A stretch of 64,000 bases of DNA from Anaerolineae bacterium (GTDB lineage: Bacteria > Chloroflexota > Anaerolineae > JACRMK01), in assembly GCA_038198935.1 (NCBI GenBank), contig JBBPZQ010000127.1, forward strand, positions 824 to 64,823, read 5' to 3'. The position numbers were made by a program, and so were the translations under genes. Under the pieces are notes generated by a model, which worked only from the letters and a program-made list of their open reading frames with translations, was not told where the DNA came from and ran no database searches. This document shows, in pieces, positions 22,597-43,562 of this stretch; positions within the stretch are counted from its first letter, which is position 1; each line of letters starts with the position of its first letter.

Positions 22597-22742
22597 CATA
22601 GGAATAAAGTAGTGAGAACAATGGGTTGTTGCAATGGCATGCTGTGCGTCGTAGAATACTCGCGCCTTGCTGAGGTTTAAGCGCTCTATCCGTTGACGTG
22701 CGGACGGCTGCAGCGAGAGTTCATCAGATACGGAGGCGCATC

Positions 22743-23549
22743 ATGCGTCGTGTCGGTCGCATTCTGATCGTTTTGGGTGTCGCGCTGGGGTTGATCACCT
22801 TCCTTGCAGCAATGATCATTCTGCCACAACTGTCGAGCAGCGGCGGGCCCGTCGTCAAGACGACCAAAGTCGTCGTGGCGCAGCAGAACATCGCCTCGCG
22901 CGCGCCCGTTCCACGCGCCGCGCTGACGGTTGTCGAATGGCCCGACGACGAAGTGCCGGCCGGTGCCTTCACCGATCCGGACCTGGCCTCCAAGGACAAA
23001 TTGTCCAAGACAAACATTGCCATCGGACAAGTCGTCTTGTCGAGCATGGTGATCGAAAAGAAGAACGAGGAGAAGCGCAAAGGCATCGGCTCCGATGCGT
23101 CGTACATCGTGCCGGCCGGCAAAGTCGCCGTCGCGTTCCCGCTCAGCATGTTGTCGGGCGTGGCGTCGGCGCTGAAAGATGGCGACACGGTGGACTTGCT
23201 CGTGAGCTACGAATTGGTGCCGGCGCCGGGACAGGCACAGACTGGCGTAACGCGCCGACAGATCACGCAGTTGACGATGCAAGACGTGGAGATTTTGCGC
23301 GTGGGTCCATGGAACCAGCCGGCGGCCGCCGACGGCGCGCCGTCGAAAGATGCGAACGTCTTGACGTTATTGGTCAATCCGCAGGACGCGCTCGTGCTGA
23401 AGTTCCTGCGCGAGACCAGCGCCGACGTGCAGTTCGCCCTGCGCGCGGCCGGCGATCATCAAGTGTACAAGACCGACGCCGTCATTATCGAGTACGTTGA
23501 CCAGCGTTTCAATTTCACGGGCTCACTCGTGGGTCGCCCATCACGCTAA
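22743..23549 (+). CDS. cpaB: Flp pilus assembly protein CpaB/RcpC (SAF-domain)
   Basis: Single N-terminal TM then SAF/RcpC region; track ORF 22698..23549, start refined to MRRVGRIL. Confidence 0.65.
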   Translation: MRRVGRILIVLGVALGLITFLAAMIILPQLSSSGGPVVKTTKVVVAQQNIASRAPVPRAALTVVEWPDDEVPAGAFTDPDLASKDKLSKTNIAIGQVVLSSMVIEKKNEEKRKGIGSDASYIVPAGKVAVAFPLSMLSGVASALKDGDTVDLLVSYELVPAPGQAQTGVTRRQITQLTMQDVEILRVGPWNQPAAADGAPSKDANVLTLLVNPQDALVLKFLRETSADVQFALRAAGDHQVYKTDAVIIEYVDQRFNFTGSLVGRPSR

Positions 23550-23564
23550 TTTTCAGGATGACGT

Positions 23565-24983: not shown

Positions 24984-25075
24984 GCGGATATCATTCACCA
25001 CCGAGACGCAGCGATGTTGCTGCGACCGTACTTCTAGAGTAGCAACCCGGACGTTTAGATGATCGAGGTAATCCT

Positions 25076-26524
25076 ATGTCCTTGCTAAAACGCATCGAGC
25101 GCAGTTACCAACAGCAGTCGGAGCTGACCGCGCCGCCCACCAACGGCGGCAGCAGCGGCGCGCTGCCGCCCACATCGCCAGCGCCGCCCGACAGCAACGG
25201 CTCGAAGTTGGAAGAGCTACGCCTGCGCCGTGTGCAATCCGCGCCGGTGCGCGACGCTCAACGCGAACTGCGCGAGCGCATCCACGCGCGCCTGATCGCC
25301 GAACTCGACCACAAACTCGACGTCTCCAAGACCGACGAGGTGCGCAAGAATTTAGACGTTTTATTCAACACCGCACTCGACGACGAAAACGTACCGATGA
25401 ATCGGGCGGACAAAGCGAAACTGTTCGAGCAAATTGTTGCGGACATCCTCGGCTTTGGTCCCATCGAGCCGCTGCTCGCGGACGACTCCATCTCGGAGAT
25501 CATGGTCAACGGACCTAAAGCGGTGTACATCGAGCGCAACGGCAAGGTCGAGAAGACCGCCGTCACCTTCGAGAACGATGGGCACGTTGGACGCATCATT
25601 GACCGCATCGTCTCGCCGCTCGGCCGGCGCGTGGACGAATCGCAGCCGTATGTGGATGCGCGCTTGCCCAACGGCTCGCGCGTGAACGTCATCATCCCGC
25701 CGCTGTCCTTGAAGGGGCCAACCATTACCATCCGCAAGTTCTTCAAGCGCATGTTAACGGCGGAGCGGCTGATAGACTTAGGTTCGATCACGCCCGAAGC
25801 GATTGAGCTGCTGAAAGCCTGCACCTACGCGCGCCTCAACATGGTGATCTCGGGCGGCACCGGCACGGGCAAGACGACGTTTCTCAATATGCTCAGCGGG
25901 TTCATTCCCTCCGACGAGCGCATCATCACGATTGAGAACGCGGCGGAGTTGCAGCTGCAGCAGGAGCACGTCATCACGCTGGAGTCGCGTCCGCCCAACA
26001 TCGAAGGCAAAGGCGAGGTGACCATTCGCGATCTAGTTATCAACGCCTTGCGCATGAGACCCGAGCGCATCATCGTGGGCGAGTGTCGCGGCGGCGAGGC
26101 GCTGGACATGCTGCAAGCGATGAACACGGGGCACGATGGCTCGCTGACGACCATTCACGCCAACACGCCGCGTGATGCGCTGGCGCGCATTGAGACGATG
26201 GTGCTGATGGCGGGGCTGGACTTGCCCGTGCGCGCGATTCGCGAGCAGGTGGCGAGTGCGCTCGACGTGGTGGTGCAGTTGGAGCGGCTGCGCGATGGCA
26301 CGCGGCGGGTGGTGCAGATCGCGGAAGTGCAGGGCATGGAAGGCGACGTGATCGTGATGCAGGACATCTTCAAGTTCGAGCAGTTGGGCATCGAGAACGG
26401 CAAAATCAGCGGGCGCTTACAGCCGACGGGCATTCGTCCGAAATTCAGCGAGAAGTTGGACGCGGCCGGCATTCAACTGCCGCCCGAAGTCTTCGGCTTC
26501 GGCGCCGATAAACGACGGCGCTGA
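25076..26524 (+). CDS. cpaF: CpaF/TadA type II/IV secretion ATPase
   Basis: Walker [10 protein letters not shown], Asp box, Walker B, His box. Confidence 0.9.
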
Positions 26525-26630
26525 AACCAAACCACAGAGGCGCAGAGATTTTATTGAGCATTGCTCCGCGCCTCTGTAGCTCTGCGGTGCAATCAACTGA
26601 ACTGCTGAGCGAATTGAAAGTGAGTGAACG

Positions 26631-27596
26631 ATGAACCCAGCCGCATTGGGGCTCGCATTGAGCTGCATGTTTTCGGTCATCATCTTTTTCTTTGGATTGG
26701 CGCGCTTCGTGGGCGGGGGCAACCAGCAAGTTTCCAATCGGCTCGAACGCTTCGCCACACGACCAGGTGCGACGCTGCCAGCCGCGTCGAGTAAAGACCA
26801 AAAGCGCGGACGCATCGCCGCAGAGATTGACAAAGAGCTGAGTCGGCGCGGGCGCAGCAATAACATCGCCGCCGAACTCGCGCGCGCCGATCTCAAGCTG
26901 ACGCCGGGCGAATTCTTTCTCATTCAAGTGCTGGTCATCATCGTGTTAGGCATCACGGGATACCTCGTCTTTCGTCAGCTGGTGATGGCGCTGCCGATGG
27001 GCATCGTCGGCTATTTCCTGCCGCGCTTTTACGTGCGCTTCCGTCAAGGACTGCGGCAGCGCACGTTCTACACACAACTGCCCGACGCCATCAGCTTGCT
27101 CGCCAACTCACTGCGCTCTGGCTACAGCCTGCCGCAATCTATGGAGTTGCTCTCGCGCGAGATGCAGCCGCCCATCGCCACTGAGTTCGGGCGTGTCGTG
27201 CGCGAGATCGGGTTGGGCTTGCCGTTCGAGCAAGCTATGGAGAATATGGTGCGCCGCAACAAGAACGACGATCTCGATCTGACCGTGACCGCCATCCTCG
27301 TGAATCATGAAGTCGGCGGCAACTTATCGCAGGTGCTGGAGATCATTGGCCACACCATCCGCGAGCGCATCCGCATCAAAGGCGAGATTCGGATCATGAC
27401 CGCGCAGCAGCAGTTGTCCGGCTACATCGTCGGCTTGATGCCATTCGGGTTGACGTTTTTCCTCTTCGTCATCAACCCCGACTACATGGGCGAGTTGTTT
27501 CATAGCCTGTGCGGGCAGATGCTCGCGTGCACGGCCTTCTCGTTCGTCGGCATTGCGTTCGTGCTCATCCGCAAGATCGTGAACATCGAGGTCTAA
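26631..27596 (+). CDS. tadB: TadB platform protein (T2SS-F family)
   Basis: T2SSF domain, three TM segments. Confidence 0.8.
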   Translation: MNPAALGLALSCMFSVIIFFFGLARFVGGGNQQVSNRLERFATRPGATLPAASSKDQKRGRIAAEIDKELSRRGRSNNIAAELARADLKLTPGEFFLIQVLVIIVLGITGYLVFRQLVMALPMGIVGYFLPRFYVRFRQGLRQRTFYTQLPDAISLLANSLRSGYSLPQSMELLSREMQPPIATEFGRVVREIGLGLPFEQAMENMVRRNKNDDLDLTVTAILVNHEVGGNLSQVLEIIGHTIRERIRIKGEIRIMTAQQQLSGYIVGLMPFGLTFFLFVINPDYMGELFHSLCGQMLACTAFSFVGIAFVLIRKIVNIEV

Positions 27597-27597
27597 C

Positions 27598-28524
27598 ATG
27601 GCTGTCTTTATCGCGCTGGGTTTGGGCGTCGCCGTCGTGATGGTTTTCGTCGGCTTGGCGATGCCGCGCGGCGTTGATCCCGTGCAAGCGCGACTCAATC
27701 AATATGGCTCGCGCGTCCGCACGCTGGAAGAAATGGAACTGGAGCGTCCCTTCAACGAGCGCACCGTTAGGCCGCTCTTGCAAAACATGGCCCGTTTGGT
27801 GCTGCGCTTTACGCCGCAGACGAACTTGAAAGAAGCGCAGCGCAAGCTCGACATGGCAGGCAATCCGAACAACTGGACGGCGTCGGATTTTCTCGGCGTG
27901 CGTGGGCTGTCGGCGCTGGCGTGTGGCAGCATTCCATTGCTCCTGCTGTGGTTCAGCCACGCGCCGCTGCAAAACATGATTTTGCTCACTGCGGCGGGTG
28001 CGCTGCTCGGCTTCTTCTTGCCGGTCATCTGGATCGCGCAAAAAATTAAAGCGCGGCAGAAAGCGATTCAAAAAGGACTCCCCGACGCGCTCGACCTGCT
28101 GACGATTAGCGTCGAAGCCGGACTCGCACTCGATGCGGGCTTCGCCAAAGTGGCAGAGAAAGCCGACAGCGAAATCGCGCGTGCGTTCGGGCGCGTCATC
28201 AGCGAAGTGCGCGTCGGTCGTCCGCGCAAAGATGCATTGCGCGACATGGCAGATCGCGCGGGCGTGCCCGACCTCACCAACTTTGTGACCGCGCTGATTC
28301 AAGCCGAGCAACTCGGCGTGAGCATGACGAAGATTCTGCGCATCCAGTCGGAGCAGATGCGCATCAAGCGCCGCCAGCGTGCAGAAGAGCAAGCGCAAAA
28401 AGCGCCGGTCAAAATGAGTGTGGTACTGGTGCTCATGCTTCTGCCTGGCTTGTTCATCGTCATCCTCGGTCCGTCGGTGCCCCGCATCTGTCGGCAGTTC
28501 GATATATCTGACATCTGCAAATGA
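27598..28524 (+). CDS. tadC: TadC platform protein (T2SS-F family)
   Basis: T2SSF domain; start 1 nt after tadB stop. Confidence 0.8.
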   Translation: MAVFIALGLGVAVVMVFVGLAMPRGVDPVQARLNQYGSRVRTLEEMELERPFNERTVRPLLQNMARLVLRFTPQTNLKEAQRKLDMAGNPNNWTASDFLGVRGLSALACGSIPLLLLWFSHAPLQNMILLTAAGALLGFFLPVIWIAQKIKARQKAIQKGLPDALDLLTISVEAGLALDAGFAKVAEKADSEIARAFGRVISEVRVGRPRKDALRDMADRAGVPDLTNFVTALIQAEQLGVSMTKILRIQSEQMRIKRRQRAEEQAQKAPVKMSVVLVLMLLPGLFIVILGPSVPRICRQFDISDICK

Positions 28525-31140: not shown

Positions 31141-32145
31141 CTACAGCAGCGCACGTACTTTCGTGAAAGCGTCCAGTAGGCGGGTGCGCTCGTCAGGCGC
31201 CAACGACTCGCGTGAAAGTTTGCGCGCCTCGCTCCACAAACCGAGCCGAATGATCGCGCGAACGAGCGCGACATACTGGGGCGAATGAAACTTATGAAAG
31301 TAGCGCACGCGACTGCGCCACTTGGCAACGAACATCGCGTGGCGGAACTGGCGCGTGGCTTGCCCTTCGTGATGTACGATGCGCGCGCGCGGCTCGCACC
31401 AGATTTGCCAGCTAGCCCGTTTGATGCGCCGACACCAGTCCACTTCTTCGACGTACATGAAGTACGCCTCGTCCATCAAGCCGACCTGCTCAATCACGTC
31501 GCGCCTCGCGAGCATGCACGCGCCGAGTGGATGATCAATCTCGAACGGTGTGTTGCGTTGTGGGTAGCGTCCGTTCAGGCGCGAATTGATCAAGCGCCCA
31601 TGCAGCGGAAAAAAATCGAAAATGGTTTGCGCCAGGCCAGGGAAGCGAAACGCCGAATGCTGAAAGCGTCCATCCGCAAACGTCAATTGCGCGCCAACGA
31701 CGCCCGCGCGCGGGTGTGCTCGTATAAAGCGTAACAGCGTTACAACCGCATCGGGCTGCACTTCCGTGTCGGGATTGAGGAGCAGAATGTATTCGGGTAA
31801 TCCACCCTCACCCCGGCCCTCTCCCTGCAAGGGAGTGGGCCGGGGTGAGGGCTGCCCCCTAAACCCCAACTCCCGCAAAGCCACGTTGTTCGCTGCCGCG
31901 AATCCTCGATTACTGTCGAGCGCGATCACGCGCACACACGGAAACTCGTCACGCACCATCGCGGCACTGCCGTCGCTCGACGCATTGTCCACGACGATAG
32001 GTTGCGGCGCGACGCCCTCGCTTGCCAACAGCGCGCTTAGGCATCGGCGCAGCAACTCGCGCGTGTTATAGCTGACGATGATGACGGGAAGATGTTCTTG
32101 ACCGCCGCTTGCCGACTGCCGTCTGCCGTCCATCTCAGAACCCAA
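31141..32145 (-). CDS. family 2 glycosyltransferase carrying an in-frame palindromic element
   Basis: VIIVSYNTRELL...VVDNASSDGS; insertion encodes RGQPSPRPTPLQGEGRGEGGLPE. Confidence 0.8.
   Translation of the reverse strand: MGSEMDGRRQSASGGQEHLPVIIVSYNTRELLRRCLSALLASEGVAPQPIVVDNASSDGSAAMVRDEFPCVRVIALDSNRGFAAANNVALRELGFRGQPSPRPTPLQGEGRGEGGLPEYILLLNPDTEVQPDAVVTLLRFIRAHPRAGVVGAQLTFADGRFQHSAFRFPGLAQTIFDFFPLHGRLINSRLNGRYPQRNTPFEIDHPLGACMLARRDVIEQVGLMDEAYFMYVEEVDWCRRIKRASWQIWCEPRARIVHHEGQATRQFRHAMFVAKWRSRVRYFHKFHSPQYVALVRAIIRLGLWSEARKLSRESLAPDERTRLLDAFTKVRALL
31802..31870. repeat. GC-rich palindromic element, in frame within GT2 gene (family copy B)
   Basis: ccaccctcaccccggccc-tctccctgcaagggag-tgggccggggtgaggg, near-perfect palindrome. 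Confidence 0.7.
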
Positions 32146-33343
32146 TCGTCACGCGCGTCGGCGCGATGCGGTCGTCCACAATGCGCACCTGTTCGTGCAG
32201 CAGTCCGACCCAGAAGAACGGATTCACCAAACTGAATTGCGTTTTGTCCACTAGCTTGATCGAGCCGCTAACGACGACACGCTGGTTCGGCATCAAATAA
32301 TAATATTTATGCGCGTTGATGGTACGCGTCGTCAGGTCGCTTTCTTTGCCAAGCCCCCAGCGATACGGATAGGCGCGCCCCGACGAGTTGCCCTCGAAGT
32401 CCACGCCGACGCGGAACACGCCAGGCTCTTCATATTGGCTCATGGCGTTGAAGTTTTCGAGCGACGTGTATTGCGTGCCGCTCCACGGCCCCTTCGTGCG
32501 GATCGGAACCGTGCCGACGTTCGCCACCGTCGCCGTGAATATTAGCGCAGCGCCGATGGGCACGGATGTTGGCGCGATGCTCGCCGTCGCGCCGACGATT
32601 TCCGCGCGCGGCACGCCGCCTTCTGCAATCGTGAGCGTCGCCGTCTTGCGCACAACGTTCCCCGCCGAATCCGTCGCTTCGGCGATGACTTGATAGGTGC
32701 CGTCGGGCGGCGGCGGCGCGCCGAGATCAACGCCGCCTTCGTAGTCGTAGGTGTGTACGCCCGCCTCACCGGACTTCACGGCATTATCTCTGCGCTCCGC
32801 GATGGGCCACTTGTGACCATCGCCGCCGAGCAAATACACGAATACGTCCGCTTTCTTCGTGAGGTTGTACGTGATGCTCACGCGGTCGTCCACGCCGTCG
32901 CGGTTCGGCGTGAAGTGATCCGGGAAGACCGTGAAGTTTTGGATGTCGGGTAACTGCGTGTCGGAATCCTTCACGCTGATGGTGCGTTCCATGCGCATCG
33001 GCGTGCCGCCGTCCGTCGGACTGGCTTCGATGAGCAGCGTGTATGTGCCGTTGGGCATCACCGTGCCACTGACGACGCCGCCGAACAGCAGATCGTAATC
33101 GCCCGCCGCACGCGCTTGGTTGCCGCGCAGCGCATACACTCTGCCGTCGCTCGCGCGCAGCGTGATCGTCACGTTGGCGTTCGCCGACAGCGAGTATTGC
33201 AGCTCCGCCACATCGTCCCTGCCGTCGCCGTTCGGCGTAATCACGTCAGGATGGACATCCACTTTCGTCAGCAACGGTTGCGTTCCGCACGCGGCGAGGC
33301 TGAGCAGCAGGCAGAGCGCGACAATTTTTGGAAGAACGTTCAT
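32135..33343 (-). CDS. lipoprotein with Ig-like/beta-sandwich repeats
   Basis: Signal plus lipobox LAAC; track ORF 32135..33481 trimmed to MNVLPKIV; repeated ...TPNGDGRDD / TPNRDGVDD units. Confidence 0.55.
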   Translation of the reverse strand: MNVLPKIVALCLLLSLAACGTQPLLTKVDVHPDVITPNGDGRDDVAELQYSLSANANVTITLRASDGRVYALRGNQARAAGDYDLLFGGVVSGTVMPNGTYTLLIEASPTDGGTPMRMERTISVKDSDTQLPDIQNFTVFPDHFTPNRDGVDDRVSITYNLTKKADVFVYLLGGDGHKWPIAERRDNAVKSGEAGVHTYDYEGGVDLGAPPPPDGTYQVIAEATDSAGNVVRKTATLTIAEGGVPRAEIVGATASIAPTSVPIGAALIFTATVANVGTVPIRTKGPWSGTQYTSLENFNAMSQYEEPGVFRVGVDFEGNSSGRAYPYRWGLGKESDLTTRTINAHKYYYLMPNQRVVVSGSIKLVDKTQFSLVNPFFWVGLLHEQVRIVDDRIAPTRVTIGF

Positions 33344-33398
33344 CGAGATAATTTCAAAACAATCACACAAGGCAACCACCAAGACCCTAAGGCGCAAG

Positions 33399-33432
33399 GA
33401 CACAAAGAAGCATAGTTCTGAAACTTTGTGTC
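33399..33432 (-). terminator. hairpin downstream of GT-C gene
   Basis: gacacaaag - 16 nt - ctttgtgtc. Confidence 0.4.
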
Positions 33433-33578
33433 TCCGTGTCTTGGTGTCTTTGCGGATAAATCGTTCAGCCACTTTTAACACACGCTATGATGTCTTGATT
33501 GTGTGGACACAAAAATTTCTGGAGCATTCGCCCCAGAATCGCCGCGAGTCTAACAGAGGGGGTGCGCGTCGTCAAATG

Positions 33579-36500
33579 TCAGCGCACGACGACACGCACG
33601 CCGAGCGTTGCAGCGCTGATCGCAGTCGGCGGCGGCGGCGAGCCTTGCAGAAGTAGTCGCTCGTTCGTGCGCGAGTCGTACAAGCCGACCTCGACGACAT
33701 AGACGCCCACAGGCGTGCTGCGCGGAACCGTCAACTCATAGGAATCGCTAATGAATTCGCCGGGCACCCACGCCGGCGTAGGGCGCGCGCCGTTCCCGGG
33801 CACCGCATCGCGTTGCGCCACAATACCCGCGCCTTCAGCGTTAGCTGGCACGCGCGCGGGATCAGCGAGCAGATGCACGAACACGCTGTACGATGCGCTT
33901 ACACGCTGCAACGAGCGCCAATACAACGTCACACGCAGCACGTCGCCCGCGCTCACCGTTGTCGTGCCTTGCACCGTCGAGCGCAGCGTCGGCAGCGGCA
34001 GGATGTCGTAGCCGTACAATTGAATCGCACTGCCGAATCGCTCGACATCTACCACGCGCGGTACGGGCGGGCGAAAGACGCGCGTGCTCGGCTGCACGTG
34101 CAGATCGCCGAGCGCGACGGCTGCGCCAACTTGTTTGTTGTTATGGTCGAACAGCAACAGTCGCAAGATGCGGTCGCCGGGCAAGAGGTCGTTCGGTAGG
34201 AAGTACGTATATTGCGCGCGCGCGATCTCGCCCGGCCGCCATTTGCTCGTCGCATAGCCCGACACCAACTCGTTGCGCTCGAACTCGAAGCGCGGGTTAT
34301 CGCCGTCGGGAGCGCGCTGCATTTGGAACGCGACGGTGAAGTCTTCTTTGGGCGGAGTCACGGCGCGCCAATAGACCGTGATGGCGATCGGGTCGCCGGG
34401 CTCCGCCTTGTCCTTGTCCATGTCGAAGCCGAGCATCTCGATGCTGCTGCCGAAATTGAAGCGCAGCGGATGTTTGATCTTCAACTTCTCGATGGCGGGC
34501 TGCGCCTTAGCGCGCTCGACGGGAATCGGTTGCAGCACGATGAATTTGCTGCGCGCGTTGCCTGCTGCGTCCAGCACGTCCAGACCTTCTGTGTTATCAC
34601 GCGTGTAGAGCGTGACTTCCAGTTGCTCGCTGCCGGGCGGCGTTGCCAATTCGAGCGGCACCGTAAACTTGCCGAACAGCAGATCACCTTTTTTCCAGCG
34701 CGTCGTCGGATAGTTGTACGCGCCCGGCCGCCCATCGTAGCTGCCGAGCAAGAATTGGCCCGACCCATCGCGCACTCGCAGCGCCACCTGATAATCTTTT
34801 TGCAAATCGGCGAGCGCGCGCCAATACAGTGTCACGCGGACGCCTTGATCGGCGGGCGGCGGCGCATCGGGCAACGTATAGCCAAGCAACTCGATCTGAT
34901 TGCCGAAGTTCACGCTCAGCGGATGTTGAATTTGCGGCTTGTCGGCGAATGTGACGCCCGCGGGAATATCATAGTGCAATACCTGCACGCCGAAGAACTC
35001 TTGCGCTGCGATGCGCTTCGCTTGCGAATCAAGGATAGTCGTCACAAAACCGTTCGGGTCAACCACGTCGTTCTGCCACAGCACGACCCACGCGCCGCGC
35101 TTGTTCCTCAGCGCGCGGTTCAAATCGTTGGCGACGTTGTAGCCGAGCACGCGTTGCGTGTCGAGCGTGGCGATGTCGGGCAGACGCACTTCCTGTGCAC
35201 CCCGATCATAATATTCATAGACGGGGAACATATGGCCCGATACCAGCACGGTCGGCTCGCCGCTCACGCGCTGCGCTTGGATGGCGCGGGCTGCGCCGCG
35301 GAAATCATCTTTGCCGAACGCGGCGTCGAAATACAAATTGTTGTCGGCGATCAATGTCGTCGCCAGCACGAACATGCCGACGACGCTCGCCAGCGGTAGC
35401 GCGAAGTAGTGGCGGCGCGAATGGGCCGGCGTGTTAACAAACTGCATGGTGAACGTGGCAACCGTCACCGCGACAAGGATGATAAACGGCGGCGAAGCGA
35501 TCATCAAGTAGCGCGGCTCGAACTTCGGGCGCGCATACGAGACGAGGTACAGCAGCACGAATGGCACGATGAGCCACAGCAGCAAAAACCAGCGCACGGC
35601 CGTCGTGCCCGTCAGCGATTGACGGAACGGATTGTCGTCGGACGATTTCAAGCGATCGGTGCGGATGCTGCGAATCGCGACGACGCCAAACAGCGCAAGC
35701 AGCACGAAGCCCAGCGCGACGGCGACGGCTTGCTCTTCGAGCATGCTTTGCCCTACGCTGAACAGCGCAAACGTCTTGCGCAGGACTTCGCCGAGCGGCA
35801 GCGTGCCCTCGTAGAAACTCTGGTCGGCGCCGAAACGTGCGACGGCGAACTGCGCCCACGGCAGGTATGCCGCGCCGACGAGCGCGGCACTGCTCAGTCC
35901 CGCCAGCAGCATCAGCCAGCGTGTCTCCTGCCGCACCCACCAGATGAAAAAGTATAGTGCCTGAAACGCGACGACAAAGAAGCCGTAGAAATGCAAATAC
36001 ACTGCGAGCACGTCGAGCAACGTCCACGCCAGCCACCACTGCCACGTCGCGCGCTCCGTCCAGCGCCAGAACGCATACGACGACAGCACCGTCAGCAGCA
36101 CGAGCCATTCGTACATGCGCGCTTCTTGGGCGTACCAGATGTACAGCGGCGAGAGCGCGGCCATAAGCGCGGCGACCCATGCGACGGGTTCGTTCAGCAA
36201 GCGGCGCGCGAGGATGAAGAACGCGGGCACCAGCAGCACGCCTGCCATGAGTGACAGATAGCGCAGCGCGAACTCGCTCGCACCCGCCGCACTCATCCAG
36301 AAGTGCAAGACGAGGTAATACAGCGGCGGGTGAATGTCGGCTGCGGTGCGCGCGATGATCTGGTCGAGCGGATGCGACGACAGCCACCAACTAAAGCCTT
36401 CGTCATACCACAGAGATTGGTAATCGAGATGAAACAGCCGCAGCGCAAACGCGAGGAAGCACAACGACAACAGGAGCGAGCGACGGTTCAGGAGCGAACG

Positions 36501-36605
36501 AATCCCCGCCCAAGCCACGCGCGGAAGGGTAGGGCTTGTCCTGAGTGCAGTCGTAGGAGTGGGGGTATGGTTCGCGCTCGTCATCGCGACTAATCTTAAC
36601 GACAA
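33579..36605 (-). CDS. GT-C superfamily membrane glycosyltransferase (GT39/PMT_2/ArnT-like) with three C-terminal beta-domain repeats
   Basis: About 12 TM N-terminal region with YDEGF motif; C-terminal repeats each starting ...VTLYWRA.../...ITVYWRAV... Confidence 0.7.
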   Translation of the reverse strand: MSLRLVAMTSANHTPTPTTALRTSPTLPRVAWAGIRSLLNRRSLLLSLCFLAFALRLFHLDYQSLWYDEGFSWWLSSHPLDQIIARTAADIHPPLYYLVLHFWMSAAGASEFALRYLSLMAGVLLVPAFFILARRLLNEPVAWVAALMAALSPLYIWYAQEARMYEWLVLLTVLSSYAFWRWTERATWQWWLAWTLLDVLAVYLHFYGFFVVAFQALYFFIWWVRQETRWLMLLAGLSSAALVGAAYLPWAQFAVARFGADQSFYEGTLPLGEVLRKTFALFSVGQSMLEEQAVAVALGFVLLALFGVVAIRSIRTDRLKSSDDNPFRQSLTGTTAVRWFLLLWLIVPFVLLYLVSYARPKFEPRYLMIASPPFIILVAVTVATFTMQFVNTPAHSRRHYFALPLASVVGMFVLATTLIADNNLYFDAAFGKDDFRGAARAIQAQRVSGEPTVLVSGHMFPVYEYYDRGAQEVRLPDIATLDTQRVLGYNVANDLNRALRNKRGAWVVLWQNDVVDPNGFVTTILDSQAKRIAAQEFFGVQVLHYDIPAGVTFADKPQIQHPLSVNFGNQIELLGYTLPDAPPPADQGVRVTLYWRALADLQKDYQVALRVRDGSGQFLLGSYDGRPGAYNYPTTRWKKGDLLFGKFTVPLELATPPGSEQLEVTLYTRDNTEGLDVLDAAGNARSKFIVLQPIPVERAKAQPAIEKLKIKHPLRFNFGSSIEMLGFDMDKDKAEPGDPIAITVYWRAVTPPKEDFTVAFQMQRAPDGDNPRFEFERNELVSGYATSKWRPGEIARAQYTYFLPNDLLPGDRILRLLLFDHNNKQVGAAVALGDLHVQPSTRVFRPPVPRVVDVERFGSAIQLYGYDILPLPTLRSTVQGTTTVSAGDVLRVTLYWRSLQRVSASYSVFVHLLADPARVPANAEGAGIVAQRDAVPGNGARPTPAWVPGEFISDSYELTVPRSTPVGVYVVEVGLYDSRTNERLLLQGSPPPPTAISAATLGVRVVVR

Positions 36606-36715
36606 CGCGCGCGTGCGTCAATTACAACGAGCTGAGCTGTGCAAACGAAACGGTACTTGCAATTCAGCCCACCTTAGTTGAAGCACCGATACGCGCGTGA
36701 TATAATCACGAAGAG

Positions 36716-37453
36716 ATGACGACGTTTATTTTGGTGCGGCACGCGACGAACGATTGGGTGAAGAAGAATCGGCTGCCGGGCTGGACGGCGGGCATTCATC
36801 TGAACGAGGACGGACGCAAACAGGCGCAAGCCGCCGCCGAGCGACTCATGCCCGTGAAGGTGAGCGCGATTTACGCGAGCCACCTCGAACGCGCCATCGA
36901 GACGGCGGAGTTCATCGCGGGGGGCCGCAATCTCGAAGTGCAAGTGCGCGAGAACCTCGCCGACTTAAAAACGGGCGATTGGACGGGCCGCTCGGTGAAG
37001 CAAGCCGCGCGCTCGAAGTTGTGGAAGGACATCCAGCAGCGCCCGACGCACACACGGATGCCCGGCGGCGAATCGTTCAGCGAGATGCAGGGGCGACTCG
37101 TCGGCGAACTCGAACGCATTCGGGCGGCGCACCGCAAGGGCACCGTCGTCGTCGTCTCACATGCGGATGCGATCAAGGCGATGGTCGCGCATTACTTGAA
37201 ACTCGACCTCGATCAGTTCCAGCGCATCATCATCAGCCCTGCGTCCATCAGCATCGTTCACGCCGACGAGCATGGCACGCGCCTGCTGCGCCTGAACGAC
37301 ACGGGCCCACTGCCGCCCACAGCGCCGAAGAAGCGCAGGCGAAAGACAGATGAGGGCGGACGGAAGCGGGCGAGGCGCAATGGGCATCCGTCGTCCAAGG
37401 CCACACGTCCAACAACCAAAATCAAACGTCGTCCGTCTGCACACTCGTCCTAA
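36716..37453 (+). CDS. histidine phosphatase superfamily (phosphoglycerate mutase-like) with Lys/Arg-rich tail
   Basis: LVRHATNDW (RHG motif) and second His region SHADAIKA. Confidence 0.75.
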   Translation: MTTFILVRHATNDWVKKNRLPGWTAGIHLNEDGRKQAQAAAERLMPVKVSAIYASHLERAIETAEFIAGGRNLEVQVRENLADLKTGDWTGRSVKQAARSKLWKDIQQRPTHTRMPGGESFSEMQGRLVGELERIRAAHRKGTVVVVSHADAIKAMVAHYLKLDLDQFQRIIISPASISIVHADEHGTRLLRLNDTGPLPPTAPKKRRRKTDEGGRKRARRNGHPSSKATRPTTKIKRRPSAHSS

Positions 37454-37462
37454 AGCGAATCT

Positions 37463-37963
37463 ATGCCGAACATCCTATACGAATTCAATCCGGTGACGCG
37501 CATCGTCGCCGATGCAATAGGCGAGCCCGGCAATCGCACGTTCTACTTGCAGGCAAAGCAGAGCCGCACCACGGTAACGCTCATCATCGAGAAGTTTCAA
37601 GCTCAGGCGCTCGCCGAAGGGATAGACGAATTGCTGGAGAAACTCGGCGGACCGCCGACCGCCAGCACGAGCGAACTGCACCTCGAAGAACCGATGGAGC
37701 CGTTGTTCCGCGTCGGACAGATGGGGCTGGGGCACGACGAGTTAAGCGACCGCATGATTATCGTCGCCTACGAAGTGCCGGAAACCGAAGAGACCGATCC
37801 CGACACACTCAACGCGGTGCGCCTCTGGATGTCGCGCGAGCAGGCGCGCGCGCTGGCGATGCACGCACTCGTCGCGGTGTCTGGCGGGCGACCGTTGTGC
37901 GTGCTGTGCGGCAACCCGATTGACCCCGCAGGGCACTTCTGCCCAAAACGGAATGGACATTGA
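37463..37963 (+). CDS. DUF3090-family protein with C-terminal Cys cluster
   Basis: Conserved YEFNPVTRIVADAIGEPGNRTFYLQA N-terminus; C-terminal CVLCGNP...HFCP. Confidence 0.6.
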   Translation: MPNILYEFNPVTRIVADAIGEPGNRTFYLQAKQSRTTVTLIIEKFQAQALAEGIDELLEKLGGPPTASTSELHLEEPMEPLFRVGQMGLGHDELSDRMIIVAYEVPETEETDPDTLNAVRLWMSREQARALAMHALVAVSGGRPLCVLCGNPIDPAGHFCPKRNGH

Positions 37964-38035
37964 ATGAGTAGCCAGTCGTCAGTCGCCAGTGGCCCGACGG
38001 TTCTCATCTGACGACTGACGCCTGAGTACTGTTCT

Positions 38036-38824
38036 ATGGCAAAGCGCCGCCGAAGTTCCGCGAGAGAAAGTCGCACGATTCAAATCCCCGACGCGCATTT
38101 CCAAAATCTGCCGCAAGCACAAATTGTCGCGCTGCTGACGAACGGAGAGATGGAACTGGAAGGCATCATGCCGTGGAGTTCCAATTACACCTTCCTCGCG
38201 CGCGTCACGCAGGACGATTTGCAGCTGCTCGTCATCTACAAACCGTGCAAAGGTGAGCGACCGCTGTGGGACTTTCCGCACGGGACGCTGTGCAAGCGCG
38301 AGGTCGCGGCGTTTCTGCTCAGCGAGTCACTCGGTTGGGGTCACGTCCCGCCGACGGTGCTGCGCGATGGTCCACACGGACTCGGCTCGGTGCAATTGTT
38401 TATTGATTGCGACGCGGAGCAGCACTACTTCACATTGAAGGACGAGCACGCCGACGAGTTCAAGCGTCTGGCTGTGTTCGACGCGCTATTGAACAACACC
38501 GATCGCAAAGGCGGCCACTGCCTGATTGATCACAACGGCAAGATTTGGGCGATTGATCACGGCGTCACGTTCCACTGCGAGCCAAAACTGCGCACCGTGA
38601 TCTGGGACTACGCGGGGGAGAAAATTCCGGCTGCGGTGATGAATGACTTGAAGCAATTGCAGCAGCGCATGTGCGGCAATGCGCTGATAGCGCGCGAACT
38701 GCACGCGCTGCTCGACCGCGACGAAATTGACGCGCTGCTGGGCCGCCTCAATGAATTAATCGAGATGGGCACGTTCCCCGAACCGAACTCCGACTGGTAT
38801 ACCATTCCTTGGCCGCCAGTGTAG
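38036..38824 (+). CDS. SCO1664-family protein, PI3/PI4-kinase-like atypical kinase fold
   Basis: Catalytic-loop-like NTDRKGGHCLID and DFG-like IDHG motifs. Confidence 0.6.
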   Translation: MAKRRRSSARESRTIQIPDAHFQNLPQAQIVALLTNGEMELEGIMPWSSNYTFLARVTQDDLQLLVIYKPCKGERPLWDFPHGTLCKREVAAFLLSESLGWGHVPPTVLRDGPHGLGSVQLFIDCDAEQHYFTLKDEHADEFKRLAVFDALLNNTDRKGGHCLIDHNGKIWAIDHGVTFHCEPKLRTVIWDYAGEKIPAAVMNDLKQLQQRMCGNALIARELHALLDRDEIDALLGRLNELIEMGTFPEPNSDWYTIPWPPV

Positions 38825-38844: not shown

Positions 38845-40746
38845 CTACGGCGTTACTCGCAGCGCGTCGCTGCCGTCTTCCAGTTTCAGCCGCTCGCCGC
38901 TGCGCGCATCGTACAGACCCACTTCAATTCGTGAGACATTGGCCTCAGACGCGAGGTAGTGAATGTCCTTCACGATCTCGCCTACCTCCCACTGCGTCGT
39001 CGGCATGAAGCCATTCGCAGGCGGGCTGTCGTGCTGGCCCACCAGCGTTCCGTTCGCAGCGAGCGCGTGCACGAACACAGTGTAGTTGGTGACGAGCGGC
39101 GTGCCTGCCTTCCACCACAACGTCACGCGCAGCGCGCGCGCGCCCCACGCGCGCTCCGTTGGCTGATAGGCTCCCTCGGCGTCGGCATCCGCAATCTCGT
39201 AACCGAGTAAGTGAATCGTCTGAGAAAATAGTTGATCGCGCATGTGCGCGATCACGGGCTCGTCCGTGTAGCGCAGCAACTTGTAGTCGCACGCATCGCC
39301 GATCAGTATATAGTCTGGTCGCGCGAGAAATTGGTTGAGTGCGTGCGGCACTTCGAGCGGACGGAACGGCGTCCAATTGTTGTGGCCGTCGCTCAGGTCA
39401 ACACGACCGTCGAGCACGACATACTCGGCCGTCGGCTCGCCCAGCGATGGAAACACATTTAGCGCGCGGCGATGCGCGAGGTGCGGCAGCAGATTGTCCT
39501 GCGCGCTGATGGATGCGTTCGGCGGCACGAGCGCCAGCACACGCTGCGCGCAAGCCCGGCGTGCGCTCACGTCGAAACGCATCGGCGCGAACTCGCGCGC
39601 GAAAGGACCAACACTCCACAACCAATACGACAAGCCGCCCAACAGCAGCAGCGCAACCGTCATCGCGCGTGCCAATTGGCGCGGGGCAGAGGCAATCGCC
39701 ATTGAAGTCGCGACGAATAGAATCGGCAGCAGTGGCGCGACATACCAAGCCTGCAACTGCGATACGCTCTGCTTATCGCTCAACAACAAATACGCGAAGA
39801 CGGGCAGCGCCACTGCGAATAAACTCGGCGCAAGCACCGGCAAGAACGCAAGCGGCAGCAGCACGCGCGCGACGGCGATAATCTTTGGCGCGGAGAGGTA
39901 GCGCGACACGAGCAGCAGCGGATCGGTGAGCAGACGCACGATACCTTGTGTTGGCGTTGGCGCGATGTCACCATAGCGATCCTGCCAATGCGAGATAGCA
40001 TCGGGCAGCATGCTCGGCAGTATGCCCCACACGAACACGAGCCATGCAACGGCGACGACGATCAGCAACATGCCCGCTCGCACAGCGTGCGGCTTGACTA
40101 CGAGCATGTACACGCCGACCGCCGCAACCACAATGGCGAGTTCTTCTTTGACGACGAGCGCCGCTAAAAGCAGAGCGAAGACGGAAGGCGAATGACGTAG
40201 GCGCGCTACGTCCGCCGTCCGCGGTCCGTCGTCGGTGGTTCGTCGCGCAAGCAACCACAGCGCGAACGCCATGAGCGGCGCGGCGAGCGCGATCTCGTGG
40301 AACTCACTCAGTGCGACGCCAAGCAGCGCAGGATTGAGATACAGTGCGAGCAGTGTGAACACGGCGAGGCGCGGATGACGCTCGCGCACAAGCAGGTAAC
40401 ATGGCACGACGCTCAGCGCGAGCGCGAGTGCCTGCGCAATCAGCAACATGCGCGGGTCCGACCACAAGCGGTAGAGTAGCGCGACGGCAATCAATGCGGG
40501 CGAGAAGTGATCGGCGAGGAAGATTTCGGGCTTGTCGGGCAGGTCGTTAACGAAGGGACGACCTTGAGAGGTGTTCCACACGACGTTATCGAAGTACGCC
40601 ATGTCGAAGGCGTGCGTGTGAAACGAGTCGTGCTGGCGCACCGCAAGCGCGGACGCGAACACGACATACGAGAGGAAGAGCACAACGGGTGCGATGCGCC
40701 ACGCGACGCCGAGTTGGCCCGCGCGCAGAGACGAATCGCGTCTCAC
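38845..40746 (-). CDS. DUF2079-like polytopic membrane protein with C-terminal beta-domain homologous to GT-C repeats
   Basis: HAFDMAYFDNVVWNTSQG N-terminal motif; at least 10 TM; C-terminal LRVTLWWKAGTPLVTNYTVFVHALA... matches repeat 3 of the 1008-aa protein. Confidence 0.6.
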   Translation of the reverse strand: MRRDSSLRAGQLGVAWRIAPVVLFLSYVVFASALAVRQHDSFHTHAFDMAYFDNVVWNTSQGRPFVNDLPDKPEIFLADHFSPALIAVALLYRLWSDPRMLLIAQALALALSVVPCYLLVRERHPRLAVFTLLALYLNPALLGVALSEFHEIALAAPLMAFALWLLARRTTDDGPRTADVARLRHSPSVFALLLAALVVKEELAIVVAAVGVYMLVVKPHAVRAGMLLIVVAVAWLVFVWGILPSMLPDAISHWQDRYGDIAPTPTQGIVRLLTDPLLLVSRYLSAPKIIAVARVLLPLAFLPVLAPSLFAVALPVFAYLLLSDKQSVSQLQAWYVAPLLPILFVATSMAIASAPRQLARAMTVALLLLGGLSYWLWSVGPFAREFAPMRFDVSARRACAQRVLALVPPNASISAQDNLLPHLAHRRALNVFPSLGEPTAEYVVLDGRVDLSDGHNNWTPFRPLEVPHALNQFLARPDYILIGDACDYKLLRYTDEPVIAHMRDQLFSQTIHLLGYEIADADAEGAYQPTERAWGARALRVTLWWKAGTPLVTNYTVFVHALAANGTLVGQHDSPPANGFMPTTQWEVGEIVKDIHYLASEANVSRIEVGLYDARSGERLKLEDGSDALRVTP

Positions 40747-43562
40747 TTCGCCTCGTCAGTTGGTTGAACTTGAATCCACTCGACCGCGCCCGCCACCGTC
40801 GGCGACGTGATGCGCTCGCCAATCGAGACGATGGCAGGACGGATGGGCGATGCATCTTCGCGGATGATGATGTTCTCGCCCGGCACCGTGATATAGCGAA
40901 CGAAGGCGTGGCTCGATCGCCAACCAACCGGTAGTTTGGAGCCTTCCGATTTCAATGCCATTGCCAATCTTAAGCTCGCACTCAGTGATGCCTCGTCGCG
41001 AACTGCCAACGCAACATTGTGGAACTTTTTATCGTGTTCCAGAAACTGCGCTAATCTGTCCGCTTCATTGGAAGACGCAAAGGTATCAAAATGATCTACA
41101 TAGTCCGCTGAGTTAATTCCTGTGATGAATGCGAGCAGATTGTATCCACGTTGATTCGGCGAGCGATCCTCTCCATCAATCCAGATATGAGCGAAATCGC
41201 CAACTTCTTCACCTGCACTTTTGACGACAACGAAACGATATGAATCAGGTTGACCGGTTTCACTTGGCAAATACCAAGTCGAGAACAGGGACGTCCATCG
41301 CAATGTCAACTCATTTAATCCCTCTGGCGTCCCTTGCATTTTAATCTGCACTCCATAATCCTTCGTGCCTTTCTGCAACGCAAACGAACCTGCCGGCCCA
41401 CCATTGACCAGTACGGTTAATTTCTGTCCTTCATCTGGCACGGTCACTCGCAGTGTGAGCACGACATCGGTATCCTGCTTCGGCATTAGCAGCCGCGTCT
41501 CATTGCGCTGCGCCCAAACGCGCTGCTCGCCCAACTCGCCCCAGCCGTCGGCGAAGTAAAGTCGCGCCATTGGCGACTTTGGATCAACCCCCACCCCTGC
41601 CCTTCCCCGCTGCGCAGGGGAGGGAGAGAGCCGATAGAGTCGCGTGCCGTCTGCATCGCGCCACAACTTGAGATCAGGCAGCACCGCTTCGAGCCACGGC
41701 TGCACTTTGCCACCGGCTTGCGCGCGCAGCACGATGTAGCGCACGTTGAAGAAGCGCATCACCTCGGGCGCGTACTGCTTGTCCTGCGCGAGCGTCGCCG
41801 CGTCGAGGTCGTGGCCCGTTTCGAGCGCGATGAGCGAATTGATGAGCGGCGCTTCGGTGAAGTATTGAAATTTCAATTCAGGGTTGCGGCTGGTGTTGCC
41901 GCTTAACATGCGCTTCTCGTGCACAGTCTGATAAAACTGGGACAGCATAAACACCTTGTCGAGCGTGCCCGTCACGCGGAAACTGTTGCGCCAGTCGAGC
42001 GGAATTTCGAGGACGGCGAAATCGCCGGGCTCATTGCGAATCTCGTCGTAGAACGACGGCGCGCGATAATCGGAGAGCGGCAAAACTGAAAAATGCTCAA
42101 CGAGTATTAGGAAGGAAATTAGGGAAGATAAAAGGAGATTAGGGGAAATCAATGCGTGCCCTTTATTTCTCTTATCTCCCCTAATCTCCCCTAATTTCCT
42201 CGCTTTCACGAGCAGATACTGAACACCGAACGCAACGAGCACCGCAACTCCGAGCGTGATCATCACCGAGTAGCGACTTGGATAGCGATTGCCTTTGAAA
42301 AATGGCAAGACTTGGAAGACGGCGAAGGGAAGCGGGATCGGAAACGCATTGCCATTCACTCGCAATTCGGGTCCGAGCGCGATGACGGCGAACGCGAGCG
42401 TCGTGACGCTCCAAAATTTCGCGAGCGTGTAGCGCCGATACACCCGCGCGCCGATGAGCGCAAGCGCCAGCGTCAGCCAGCCGACGAACACAAAGTTGAT
42501 GTAGGGAAACTCAAACCAAGTATCCAACCAGCCAACTATCGGATTCAACTTGCTCGGCACGAAGAAGCCAATCACGTCCGCTGAGAACGCATCTGCAAAG
42601 CCGGAGCCTTGCACGAGATAGTCGCCTTCGACGCGCAACTCTTGGATCATCGGCACGATGATCGGCGCGAAGCCGACGACGAATACGATGGCGACGAGCG
42701 CCAGCGCGAGCGTCATGCGCCAGAACGATTGCCGCGCACGCCAGTGCCACAGCCAGAAGAAAAATGTGAACACAATTAAAAACGAAGCGAAGGTGAATTC
42801 GGCATAGGCTTGCAGCAACAAGAACGTTGCGGCGAGGATGGCGTGACGAGCGGGGAGAAGCGAGTGGCGAGATGTCCTGTGCCGCAGGCATTCGCCTGCT
42901 TTGCGCGCAATTGCGCGCGGCACAGGATGCGCGAGTGGCGTGCGGTGAGTGGCGAACAAGTCAGAACGCAGCTTGAACAGGTACAGCACGTAGAATGGAA
43001 TCCACTGCGACGATGCTATGTTGAACTGGCCCAGCGAGGCATAGAGCATCTTGTTCGACGAGAAGGCAAACACAATGCCTGCGATAAACGCCGCCCAATC
43101 TCCAGTCTCCAGTCCCCAGTCCGCAATCCCTAACTCTTCAACCAACAGAAACATTCCATATCCGCACAACACAAACGACGACAACAACAGCATGTTCGCC
43201 GCAGGCACGAGCCCGAACACGGCTTGCAACGGGAGCGAGAGCGCGTCGTTCAGCAGCGTGAGCGTGTAGAAGACGAGGTTGATGCCAATCGGATAGAACA
43301 TGAAGTCGGTCGTGAGCGGCGAGGTGTGCAGATCGAGCAGCGCATGTTTGAACCACCACAAGTTCCATGTCAGCGCGGGGTCGTCGCTGCCATCGCCGAC
43401 GACGTGCGTCGTGAAATTCGCGGCGAGGGGCCAAGTCAGCACCAGTGCGAGCAGAGTATATGCGCCGAGCACGAGCAAATGTTTTCGCACGCAGCAGACT
43501 ATACCACAGAGACATATTTGGGCTAAACACTGTGCGCCAATTAGTGAACAAAGCACCGACAT
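40743..43562 (-). CDS. large polytopic membrane protein, probable glycosyltransferase/YfhO-like, carrying two in-frame palindromic insertions
   Basis: At least 12 TM N-terminal half, large C-terminal soluble domain; start overlaps downstream-gene stop. Confidence 0.55.
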   Translation of the reverse strand: MSVLCSLIGAQCLAQICLCGIVCCVRKHLLVLGAYTLLALVLTWPLAANFTTHVVGDGSDDPALTWNLWWFKHALLDLHTSPLTTDFMFYPIGINLVFYTLTLLNDALSLPLQAVFGLVPAANMLLLSSFVLCGYGMFLLVEELGIADWGLETGDWAAFIAGIVFAFSSNKMLYASLGQFNIASSQWIPFYVLYLFKLRSDLFATHRTPLAHPVPRAIARKAGECLRHRTSRHSLLPARHAILAATFLLLQAYAEFTFASFLIVFTFFFWLWHWRARQSFWRMTLALALVAIVFVVGFAPIIVPMIQELRVEGDYLVQGSGFADAFSADVIGFFVPSKLNPIVGWLDTWFEFPYINFVFVGWLTLALALIGARVYRRYTLAKFWSVTTLAFAVIALGPELRVNGNAFPIPLPFAVFQVLPFFKGNRYPSRYSVMITLGVAVLVAFGVQYLLVKARKLGEIRGDKRNKGHALISPNLLLSSLISFLILVEHFSVLPLSDYRAPSFYDEIRNEPGDFAVLEIPLDWRNSFRVTGTLDKVFMLSQFYQTVHEKRMLSGNTSRNPELKFQYFTEAPLINSLIALETGHDLDAATLAQDKQYAPEVMRFFNVRYIVLRAQAGGKVQPWLEAVLPDLKLWRDADGTRLYRLSPSPAQRGRAGVGVDPKSPMARLYFADGWGELGEQRVWAQRNETRLLMPKQDTDVVLTLRVTVPDEGQKLTVLVNGGPAGSFALQKGTKDYGVQIKMQGTPEGLNELTLRWTSLFSTWYLPSETGQPDSYRFVVVKSAGEEVGDFAHIWIDGEDRSPNQRGYNLLAFITGINSADYVDHFDTFASSNEADRLAQFLEHDKKFHNVALAVRDEASLSASLRLAMALKSEGSKLPVGWRSSHAFVRYITVPGENIIIREDASPIRPAIVSIGERITSPTVAGAVEWIQVQPTDEAK
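41587..41632. repeat. GC-rich palindromic element in frame (family copy C)
   Basis: cccccacccctgcccttccccgctgcgcaggggagggagagag; near-identical core to copy A; encodes SPSPAQRGRAGVGVDPKS on minus strand. Confidence 0.65.
42105..42207. repeat. second-type nested-palindrome element (cccctaatctcc / ggagattagggg units) in frame
   Basis: aggaaattaggg-aagataaaa-ggagattagggg ... cccctaatctcc-cccctaatttcct; AT-richer than host gene; encodes KARKLGEIRGDKRNKGHALISPNLLLSSLIS. Confidence 0.6.

Follow-up and report, generated by a model that had tools for sequence, protein, structure and literature searches.

A co-conserved histidine phosphatase, DUF3090 and SCO1664-family kinase cassette in an Anaerolineae genome, a candidate phosphorylation couple

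Introduction

A cassette of three genes, Rv2135c-Rv2134c-Rv2133c in Mycobacterium tuberculosis and SCO1666-SCO1665-SCO1664 in Streptomyces coelicolor (with a Streptomyces counterpart at locus L078 of our sample), encodes members of the catalogued families TIGR03848 (MSMEG_4193-type histidine phosphatases), TIGR03847 (DUF3090) and TIGR03843 (the SCO1664 family). Here we analyse a cassette with the same three families, order and orientation at positions 36716–38824 of a 64,000-nt stretch of DNA from an Anaerolineae bacterium (Chloroflexota; contig JBBPZQ010000127.1; GC content of ∼59%), which we call the window. An original prediction made from the letters of the window had described these genes as a known but uncharacterised family set of Actinobacteria and had suggested a phospho-modification module, which we regard as a reasonable hypothesis.

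The literature on the cassette is largely actinobacterial. SCO1664 has been called a 'signature protein' of actinomycetes that is 'invariably' linked to mshC (PMC4255298), and a 2022 listing places DUF3090 among the conserved unknowns and notes its 'CxxC..HxC motif' (PMC9425974). The M. tuberculosis phosphatase Rv2135c was shown to form a tetramer that has acid phosphatase but not mutase activity; it is weakly active on p-nitrophenyl phosphate, phosphoenolpyruvate, fructose-6-P and glycerol-1-P, with Km values of ∼8–14 mM, and a kcat/Km of ∼0.4 mM^-1 min^-1 was reported with p-nitrophenyl phosphate (PMC3866925). Rv2134c appears as an incidental match in a transposon-insertion sequencing (Tn-seq) study of rifampicin in BCG (PMC11329110), and MSMEG_4192 likewise in a dibucaine Tn-seq study and in a ClpC1 interactome. 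M. tuberculosis retains the trio, and so does M. leprae according to the gene numbers of a published table.

From the conservation, active sites and fusions set out below, we tentatively propose that the trio may be an autonomous unit in which a kinase and a phosphatase, joined by DUF3090, control how far a hydroxyl-bearing compound is phosphorylated, the compound being one that the phyla with the trio have in common.

Results

A conserved three-gene unit in several phyla

Three co-directional open reading frames (ORFs) were found on the plus strand exactly where the original prediction had placed them. They encode a branch-1 histidine phosphatase of the MSMEG_4193/Rv2135c type (36716–37453, 245 aa; PF00300, TIGR03848), a DUF3090/TIGR03847 protein (37463–37963, 166 aa; PF11290, TIGR03847) and an atypical kinase of the SCO1664/TIGR03843 family (38036–38824, 262 aa; TIGR03843, PF00454), and are separated by gaps of 9 nt between phosphatase and DUF3090 and 72 nt between DUF3090 and kinase. 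Pfam and NCBIfam profile searches recovered all three predicted family identities, and the corresponding TIGR03848, TIGR03847 and TIGR03843 families are indeed catalogued and uncharacterised.

One genome per species was scanned, giving at least 600 matching stretches, from which the best 80 loci were kept (41 Chloroflexota, 34 Actinomycetota, 3 Rokubacteria/Methylomirabilota, 1 Binatus and 2 unclassified). The order of phosphatase, DUF3090 and kinase on one strand was kept in about 72 of the 80 loci (∼90%), and the DUF3090 and kinase genes were adjacent in about 76 of the 78 loci with a usable flank. The trio was present in Chloroflexota, Actinomycetota, Rokubacteria/Methylomirabilota and Binatus, and also in a Bifidobacteriaceae bin (L033). 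Its co-conservation is thus far beyond chance, and the prediction of a co-conserved trio withstands the refuting condition set for it, namely that the three genes would not occur together in other genomes; the attribution to Actinobacteria was too narrow, as was the published description of an actinomycete 'signature', which the real distribution of the cassette contradicts. The nearest homologues of the window kinase and DUF3090 were all from Chloroflexota/Anaerolineae-type metagenome bins, with one NCBI/Logan protein at 100% identity and the next relatives at 64–76%, and the cassette is therefore not confined to Actinobacteria. A DUF3090 profile search against 1.84 billion representative proteins returned 2,644 clusters at E ≤ 0.001, and at least 7,997 clusters (90% identity) of the kinase family were found at E ≤ 1e-5 among the 8,000 candidate clusters scored.

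The window holds a Chloroflexota member of an already catalogued cassette and is an ordinary instance of it. Its catalytic residues are the same as those of the actinobacterial cassette and it shares an RHA variant with Rv2135c, whereas its phosphatase scores just under the TIGR03848 cutoff and it has lineage-specific polybasic tails. Because the host belongs to Chloroflexota, the cassette has no adjoining mshC and no link to mycothiol is expected.

The loci that break the trio, other than L010, L051, L057 and L073, were contig edges. At L010 (1092–2523, an Anaerolineales bin) the phosphatase and kinase genes are adjacent with no DUF3090, and at L057 (9875–10789, an unclassified bacterium) the kinase is alone within 20 kb. 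One or two Uma2-family endonuclease genes interrupt the operon, which is tight elsewhere, between the DUF3090 and kinase genes at L009 (9302–9868) and L032 (8663–9229 and 9301–9867), and we took them as selfish insertions.

Phosphatase-DUF3090 fusions

The DUF3090 profile search also recovered a complete histidine phosphatase-DUF3090 fusion of 404 aa (P0245), which is carried by three contigs. On two of them, one from an NCBI metagenome-assembled genome and one from a Logan run, the kinase gene comes next with a 4-nt overlap of stop and start codons (L088, 6001–7985; L089, 145–2129). A second in-frame phosphatase-DUF3090 fusion, P0142, is a fragment that ends at the contig end. The fusions suggest that the phosphatase and DUF3090 act together physically and, combined with the near-obligatory adjacency of DUF3090 and kinase, they point to DUF3090 as the likely bridge of a ternary complex.

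At another locus (L087, 6001–8128), a typical MurI glutamate racemase is fused in frame to DUF3090 (P0255), the kinase gene comes next and the surrounding 6 kb contain no histidine phosphatase; this is the only case of another enzyme in the phosphatase position. The murI-DUF3090 fusion was not accepted as genuine, being confined to a single contig and seen at no other locus, and is probably a read-through artefact.

The SCO1664-family kinase

The window kinase scored 302.3 bits on TIGR03843 against a cutoff of 172.4, with residues 34–262 spanning positions 1–253 of the 253-position profile, and both this score and the DUF3090 gene 72 nt upstream on the same strand assign it to the SCO1664 family. 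Its match to PI3_PI4_kinase (PF00454) is marginal, at 28.5 bits against a gathering threshold of 27.1 and with 80 of 241 profile positions covered; this score, together with the catalytic Lys, the loop Asp and the DxG Asp, places the protein in the PI3/PI4-kinase superfamily. The kinase-like catalytic-loop (DRKGGH...N) and DxG motifs named in the original prediction are present, as NNTDRKGGH (D156...H161) and D174-H-G. Across 24 Chloroflexota homologues, K69 (in YKP), D156 (in NN[TA]DRKxGH) and D174 (in IDHG) were invariant, as were a GERPLWDF loop and a C-terminal PWP motif (PWPP in the tail of the window protein). The N-terminus (residues 1–15) is polybasic and begins MAKRRRSSARESR.

An AlphaFold model of the kinase (predicted local distance difference test score, pLDDT, 81; predicted template modelling score, pTM, 0.82) was searched with Foldseek and matched the human type II phosphatidylinositol 4-kinases PI4KII alpha and beta first (E 2e-8 to 2e-6, template modelling score (TM) ∼0.5), followed by the Helicobacter pylori Ser/Thr kinase CtkA and then HipA. 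The family profile searched against sequences in the Protein Data Bank (PDB) matched FAM20A (E 8e-4) in two collinear segments, and aligned the GSxQLF and NTDR motifs with PI4KII beta. The window kinase thus resembles PI4KII alpha/beta, its best structural match, in the GSxQLF, (F/L)DxxxxNTDR and IDxG motifs, but it is about half the size, lacks the palmitoylation-type Cys motif, has His in place of the final Asn of the catalytic loop (DRKGGH) and reaches a TM of only ∼0.5. From these motifs and folds, the SCO1664-type protein belongs with PI4KII, Fam20 and HipA within the kinase-like superfamily, as a compact and probably active representative. Lipid, protein and glycan kinases all occur in this group, so the substrate cannot be named from homology alone.

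HipA, CtkA and Fam20, which are protein and glycan kinases, are related to the window kinase in fold and catalytic loop, and the presence of HipA among the structural neighbours could suggest a HipA-like toxin-antitoxin or anti-phage defence system. This idea is effectively refuted: the kinase has neither the N-terminal domain of HipA nor a Pfam HipA domain, the operon includes no antitoxin or helix-turn-helix (HTH) protein, there was no meaningful PADLOC hit, and the fixed gene order across four phyla, the housekeeping chromosomal setting and the near-universal presence of the trio in actinomycetes (PMC4255298) mark a core gene set, not a mobile element. Membership in the HipA-type toxin kinases was accordingly rejected.

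The histidine phosphatase

The window phosphatase matched His_Phos_1 (PF00300) with an E-value of 7e-53. Its score on TIGR03848 was 191.0 bits, 13 below the curated cutoff of 203.85, so that by score it falls outside the MSMEG_4193 family to which the original prediction had assigned it; TIGR03848 was nevertheless its top NCBIfam model by ∼75 bits. Scores of operon-linked copies ranged from 188 to 323 bits with no gap setting the window copy apart (other Anaerolineae-type copies 188–196, Roseiflexus 263 and Streptomyces 323 bits), and TIGR03848 was always the top model, by ∼75 bits or more. The catalytic residues R8, H9, R59, E83 and H149 were each kept in at least 90% of 60 operon-linked phosphatases, and the gene adjoins DUF3090 on its upstream side, so the assignment stands on operon linkage and catalytic residues. 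On these grounds, with TIGR03848 far ahead of other models and no gap in the scores, we consider the window phosphatase to be a divergent orthologue, and its residues indicate a catalytically competent enzyme. Its nearest characterised relatives, PspA, CobC and PhoE, act on metabolites.

Several features were rejected as family traits. The window protein has RHA at its catalytic motif, as does Rv2135c, but RHG was found in 34 copies and RHA in 23, and RHA does not define the family. The C-terminal tail (residues 199–245, 47 aa) is polybasic with 17 K/R; such tails are present in the clade of the window and are lineage-specific, not family-wide. Long N-terminal extensions of the phosphatase at several loci contained no domain and were taken as ORF over-calls.

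DUF3090

The DUF3090 protein scored 163.5 bits on PF11290 (threshold 27; E 5.5e-48) and 167.3 bits on TIGR03847 (cutoff 117.25), and both the profile scores and the C-terminal CxxC..HxC motif assign it to the family. In 33 Chloroflexota sequences, the cluster C146-x2-C149...H158-x-C160 was invariant, followed by an invariant N164-G165 (within an NGH motif in the window protein); the further invariant residues were G20, P22, G23, R25, F27, Q30, E43, K44, Q46, R83, R120, G142 and R143. The C-terminal cluster is predicted to be a zinc knuckle. In the structural model (pLDDT 88), four strands and a helix are followed by three strands and a helix and then by the less confident zinc knuckle, and the body is predicted to consist of two PUR-like beta-beta-beta-beta-alpha repeats, the second modelled with three strands. 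A weak internal repeat was also found between the two halves of the sequence (hhalign P 5e-4). No related sequence was found in the PDB, and the top Foldseek match and sole one of note, to the PUR domain of Pur-alpha, was weak (E 0.04, probability 0.93, TM 0.43–0.50). DUF3090 may be compared with Pur-alpha/PC4-like (Whirly-type) domains in its two predicted repeats packed together, but the likeness is weak and at the fold level only, and DUF3090 is acidic as a family (median pI 5.0) and carries the C-terminal zinc knuckle.

This fold match raises the very unlikely possibility that the trio heals nucleic-acid ends, with DUF3090 binding single-stranded RNA or DNA, the kinase phosphorylating 5'-OH ends and the phosphatase removing 3'-phosphates, on the model of T4 polynucleotide kinase/phosphatase. 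The two-repeat PUR/PC4-like architecture, the conserved Arg and aromatic residues on the DUF3090 strands and the polybasic tails of the window phosphatase and kinase would fit such a role, in which the two enzymes would be complementary and not futile. However, the match is weak (E 0.04, TM < 0.5), DUF3090 is acidic family-wide, the polybasic tails are confined to particular lineages, there is no conserved ligase or nuclease partner, and we know of no polynucleotide kinase of the PI3/4K fold.

The many invariant polar residues of DUF3090 (R25, Q30, E43, K44, Q46, R83 and R120) would instead suit a zinc-dependent enzyme or carrier in a sequential pathway, where the kinase would activate a metabolite, DUF3090 would transform the phospho-intermediate and the phosphatase would remove the phosphate, a pattern analogous to that of GpgS/GpgP or MshA/MshA2, in which a synthase is paired with a phosphatase. 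The last step of such a pathway often falls to a branch-1 histidine phosphatase, as with CobC and with Rv2419c GpgP (PMC3240985). We consider this rather unlikely, since neither structure nor sequence searches gave a recognisable enzyme fold for DUF3090 and no further pathway genes were conserved in the surveyed flanks.

Genomic neighbourhood

In the window, the trio lies as a plus-strand island between minus-strand genes of GT-C type glycosyltransferases, as the original prediction had noted: a PMT_2 gene (33579–36605, minus strand) on one side and a DUF2079 gene (38845–40746, minus strand) on the other. Two GT2 glycosyltransferase genes lie farther out. From this setting the prediction had drawn a hint of glycan or lipid modification. 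On such a reading, the module would act on products of the neighbouring GT-C and GT2 genes (glycans or lipid-linked sugars), for example as a glycan or polyprenol kinase and a phosphatase.

All ORFs of 81 loci were clustered, and Pfam was searched with the neighbours of the trio, 134 proteins from Chloroflexota and 114 from Actinomycetota. The 134 Chloroflexota proteins (two nearest genes on each side) included 180 Pfam families with no dominant one, the commonest (TPR, RarA/MgsA and response regulators) occurring 5–6 times each, and the 114 Actinomycetota proteins included histidine kinases (7), PstS-like proteins (5) and PMT_2 (3). Homologues of the PMT_2 and DUF2079 neighbours of the window were found in 0 of the 80 other loci. 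The full arrangement, with PMT_2 on the minus strand, the trio on the plus strand, DUF2079 and a protein with an ILEI domain (interleukin-like EMT inducer) on the minus strand and Lon on the plus strand, was restricted to the closest relatives (64–69% identity), with GT-C synteny kept at L081, L083 and L084. In Roseiflexus and in a Herpetosiphonaceae bin, the trio sits between unrelated genes.

In favour of a link to glycans are the synteny in these nearest relatives and 3 of the 34 actinobacterial loci, where a PMT_2 gene is at most two genes away from the trio. Two glycan kinases, Fam20B and POMK, have related folds, and uppP adjoins Rv2135c in M. tuberculosis. Against these points stand the absence of the window neighbours from the other loci, the essentially random Chloroflexota flanks and the carriage of the trio alone by Roseiflexus and Herpetosiphonaceae. 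The step from position to glycan or lipid modification is therefore not supported, and the predicted glycan role is in our view quite improbable. Because the trio travels as a unit across at least four phyla, we regard its glycosylation neighbours here as a local accident.

No conserved neighbourhood that could serve as a clue to function was found in the surveyed flanks, where no family recurs beyond clade-level synteny, such as RarA upstream of the trio in 7 Chloroflexota loci. In one actinomycete subclade (L005, L019, L030, L034, L074 and L079), a histidine kinase gene immediately precedes the trio, and pstS-pstCA-pstB-phoU and a gene for a response regulator adjoin it, a phosphate-regulon setting that was not seen elsewhere. 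An 'ABC ATPase' cluster of 21 loci was rejected as a PstB link, being generic and not PstB-specific. FrhB-like neighbours were found in 16 actinobacterial loci and, with the TIGRFAM numbering, would be the grounds for a speculative F420 link of the trio.

Operon layout and other features of the window

A putative sigma-70-like promoter was found upstream of the phosphatase gene (36678–36706, plus strand), with TTGAAG, a 17-nt spacer and a TG-extended TATAAT. It is no more than a consensus match, agreeing at 10 of 12 positions, and two such sites were observed against 0.7 expected in shuffled sequences. The start codon (ATG, 36716) follows the end of the −10 box by ∼10 nt, an interval into which no Shine-Dalgarno sequence fits. 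The operon mRNA is therefore probably leaderless or has a very short leader.

The DUF3090-kinase spacer is predicted to form a stable RNA hairpin (37958–38040, plus strand; ΔG −34.4 kcal/mol, z −4.0), and none of 200 shuffled sequences folded as stably. It pairs the last codon and stop codon of DUF3090 with the AUG of the kinase and could couple translation of the two genes. We rejected it as a conserved regulatory element, as it was not found in the spacers of the relatives L081, L083, L085 and L086. The spacer of the close relative L081 contains a short tandem repeat, AAATTGC, in about four copies (9945–9975).

Among the glycosyltransferase genes of the window, and kept with them in close relatives, are genes for a 939-aa protein with a C-terminal ILEI domain (40743–43562, minus strand) and a 448-aa protein with Ig-like/CHU_C matches (32135–33481). 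Elsewhere the window carries ordinary housekeeping genes of the chromosome, among them a Tad pilus cluster and the genes for IleRS, HPF, Lon, PEPCK, IDH and MDH. At 19474–28524, a gene for a 1040-aa Kelch/DUF11/CARDB protein is followed by the Tad-type pilus cluster, which includes RcpC/CpaB, a response-regulator-ParA fusion, a T2SSE ATPase and two T2SSF proteins.

Discussion

In the kinase/phosphatase couple that we tentatively propose, the three genes would form an autonomous operon that is independent of its neighbours. The atypical kinase, with its type II PI4K/Fam20/HipA-like fold, would add phosphate to a hydroxyl group, the branch-1 histidine phosphatase would take the same phosphate off, and the putatively zinc-binding DUF3090 would act as the bridging or specificity subunit of one three-protein complex, so that the couple would fix how much of a phosphorylated compound, one common to Chloroflexota and Actinomycetota, is present at steady state. 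As the substrate we are inclined to favour a small molecule or the head group of a lipid, perhaps one that bears inositol, over a protein, because the nearest solved folds are lipid kinases and the phosphatase relatives act on metabolites. The absence of any strictly invariant Ser, Thr or Tyr of DUF3090 among the 33 Chloroflexota sequences also counts in favour of this proposal.

A functional analogy is offered by PFK-2/FBPase-2, in which a kinase and a branch-1 histidine phosphatase domain jointly control one phospho-metabolite. The trio is similar in that the phosphatase is physically tied to the module, here via the DUF3090 fusion, but it differs in having a protein-kinase-like rather than a P-loop kinase fold, separate polypeptides and an extra zinc protein.

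Several observations weigh against this proposal. L051 and L073 have no phosphatase beside the kinase, and L010 has no DUF3090. The fold and profile likeness of the kinase points equally to protein kinases (CtkA, HipA and Fam20). Positions 39 and 124 of DUF3090 are Ser/Thr in 94% and 96%, respectively, of the sequences in a 70-sequence alignment over the sampled phyla, so DUF3090 could itself be a phospho-acceptor. No motif of CDP-alcohol phosphatidyltransferases, the family of phosphatidylinositol (phosphate) synthases, was found in 81 loci. Full-text literature searches returned no functional study of DUF3090, SCO1664/Rv2133c or Rv2134c, and no lipid kinase assay on an SCO1664-family protein was found in the literature searched.

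The kinase likeness and the DUF3090 Ser/Thr positions would be explained if the trio were a protein phospho-switch, in which the kinase would phosphorylate a Ser/Thr of DUF3090, or of a conserved housekeeping protein recruited by DUF3090, and the phosphatase would reverse this, with a logic analogous to partner-switching (RsbW/RsbV/RsbU) or to the action of HipA on aminoacyl-tRNA synthetases. The Ser/Thr kinases CtkA and HipA are among the structural neighbours of the kinase and its profile matches Fam20A, and the actinobacterial trio adjoins mshC, a paralogue of cysteinyl-tRNA synthetase (locus L078; PMC4255298). In addition, some members of the histidine-phosphatase superfamily (PGAM5, Sts-1 and SixA) are protein phosphatases. 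However, position 124 is a helix N-cap in the model and is likely structural, neither position 39 nor 124 is strictly invariant, the nearest characterised phosphatase relatives work on metabolites, and no conserved candidate target gene was found in the surveyed flanks. We hold the switch to be a serious but somewhat doubtful alternative to the kinase/phosphatase couple.

A narrower reading names the substrate, with the cassette carrying out an inositol head-group phosphate cycle in bacteria that make inositol compounds from inositol-1-phosphate. Bacterial phosphatidylinositol (PI) synthesis runs via phosphatidylinositol-phosphate (PIP), whose phosphatase was 'as-yet-unidentified' in 2015 (PMC4634129), and mycothiol synthesis needs a phosphatase, MshA2, which has been named without a gene (PMC6178380, PMC13156731). 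PIP would be turned into PI by the MSMEG_4193-type phosphatase, which in actinomycetes, where the operon lies beside mshC, would also be responsible for the 'MshA2' reaction from GlcNAc-Ins-P to GlcNAc-Ins. Phosphate would be returned to the head group by the SCO1664 protein, acting as a true bacterial phosphoinositide kinase, and DUF3090 would tether both enzymes. The lack of a PI(P) synthase motif in the 81 loci, the presence of the trio in the Bifidobacteriaceae bin and the role of DUF3090, which this cycle leaves unexplained, speak against it, and we think it unlikely.

Among gene sets that lack an assigned function, the trio is one of the more widely conserved. Its autonomy and its occurrence well outside Actinobacteria indicate that mycothiol and the local glycosylation genes are not necessary partners, and its distribution narrows the search for a substrate to compounds common to Chloroflexota and Actinomycetota. 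Should an inositol head group prove to be that substrate, two long-standing gaps would close together, namely the bacterial PIP phosphatase and MshA2.

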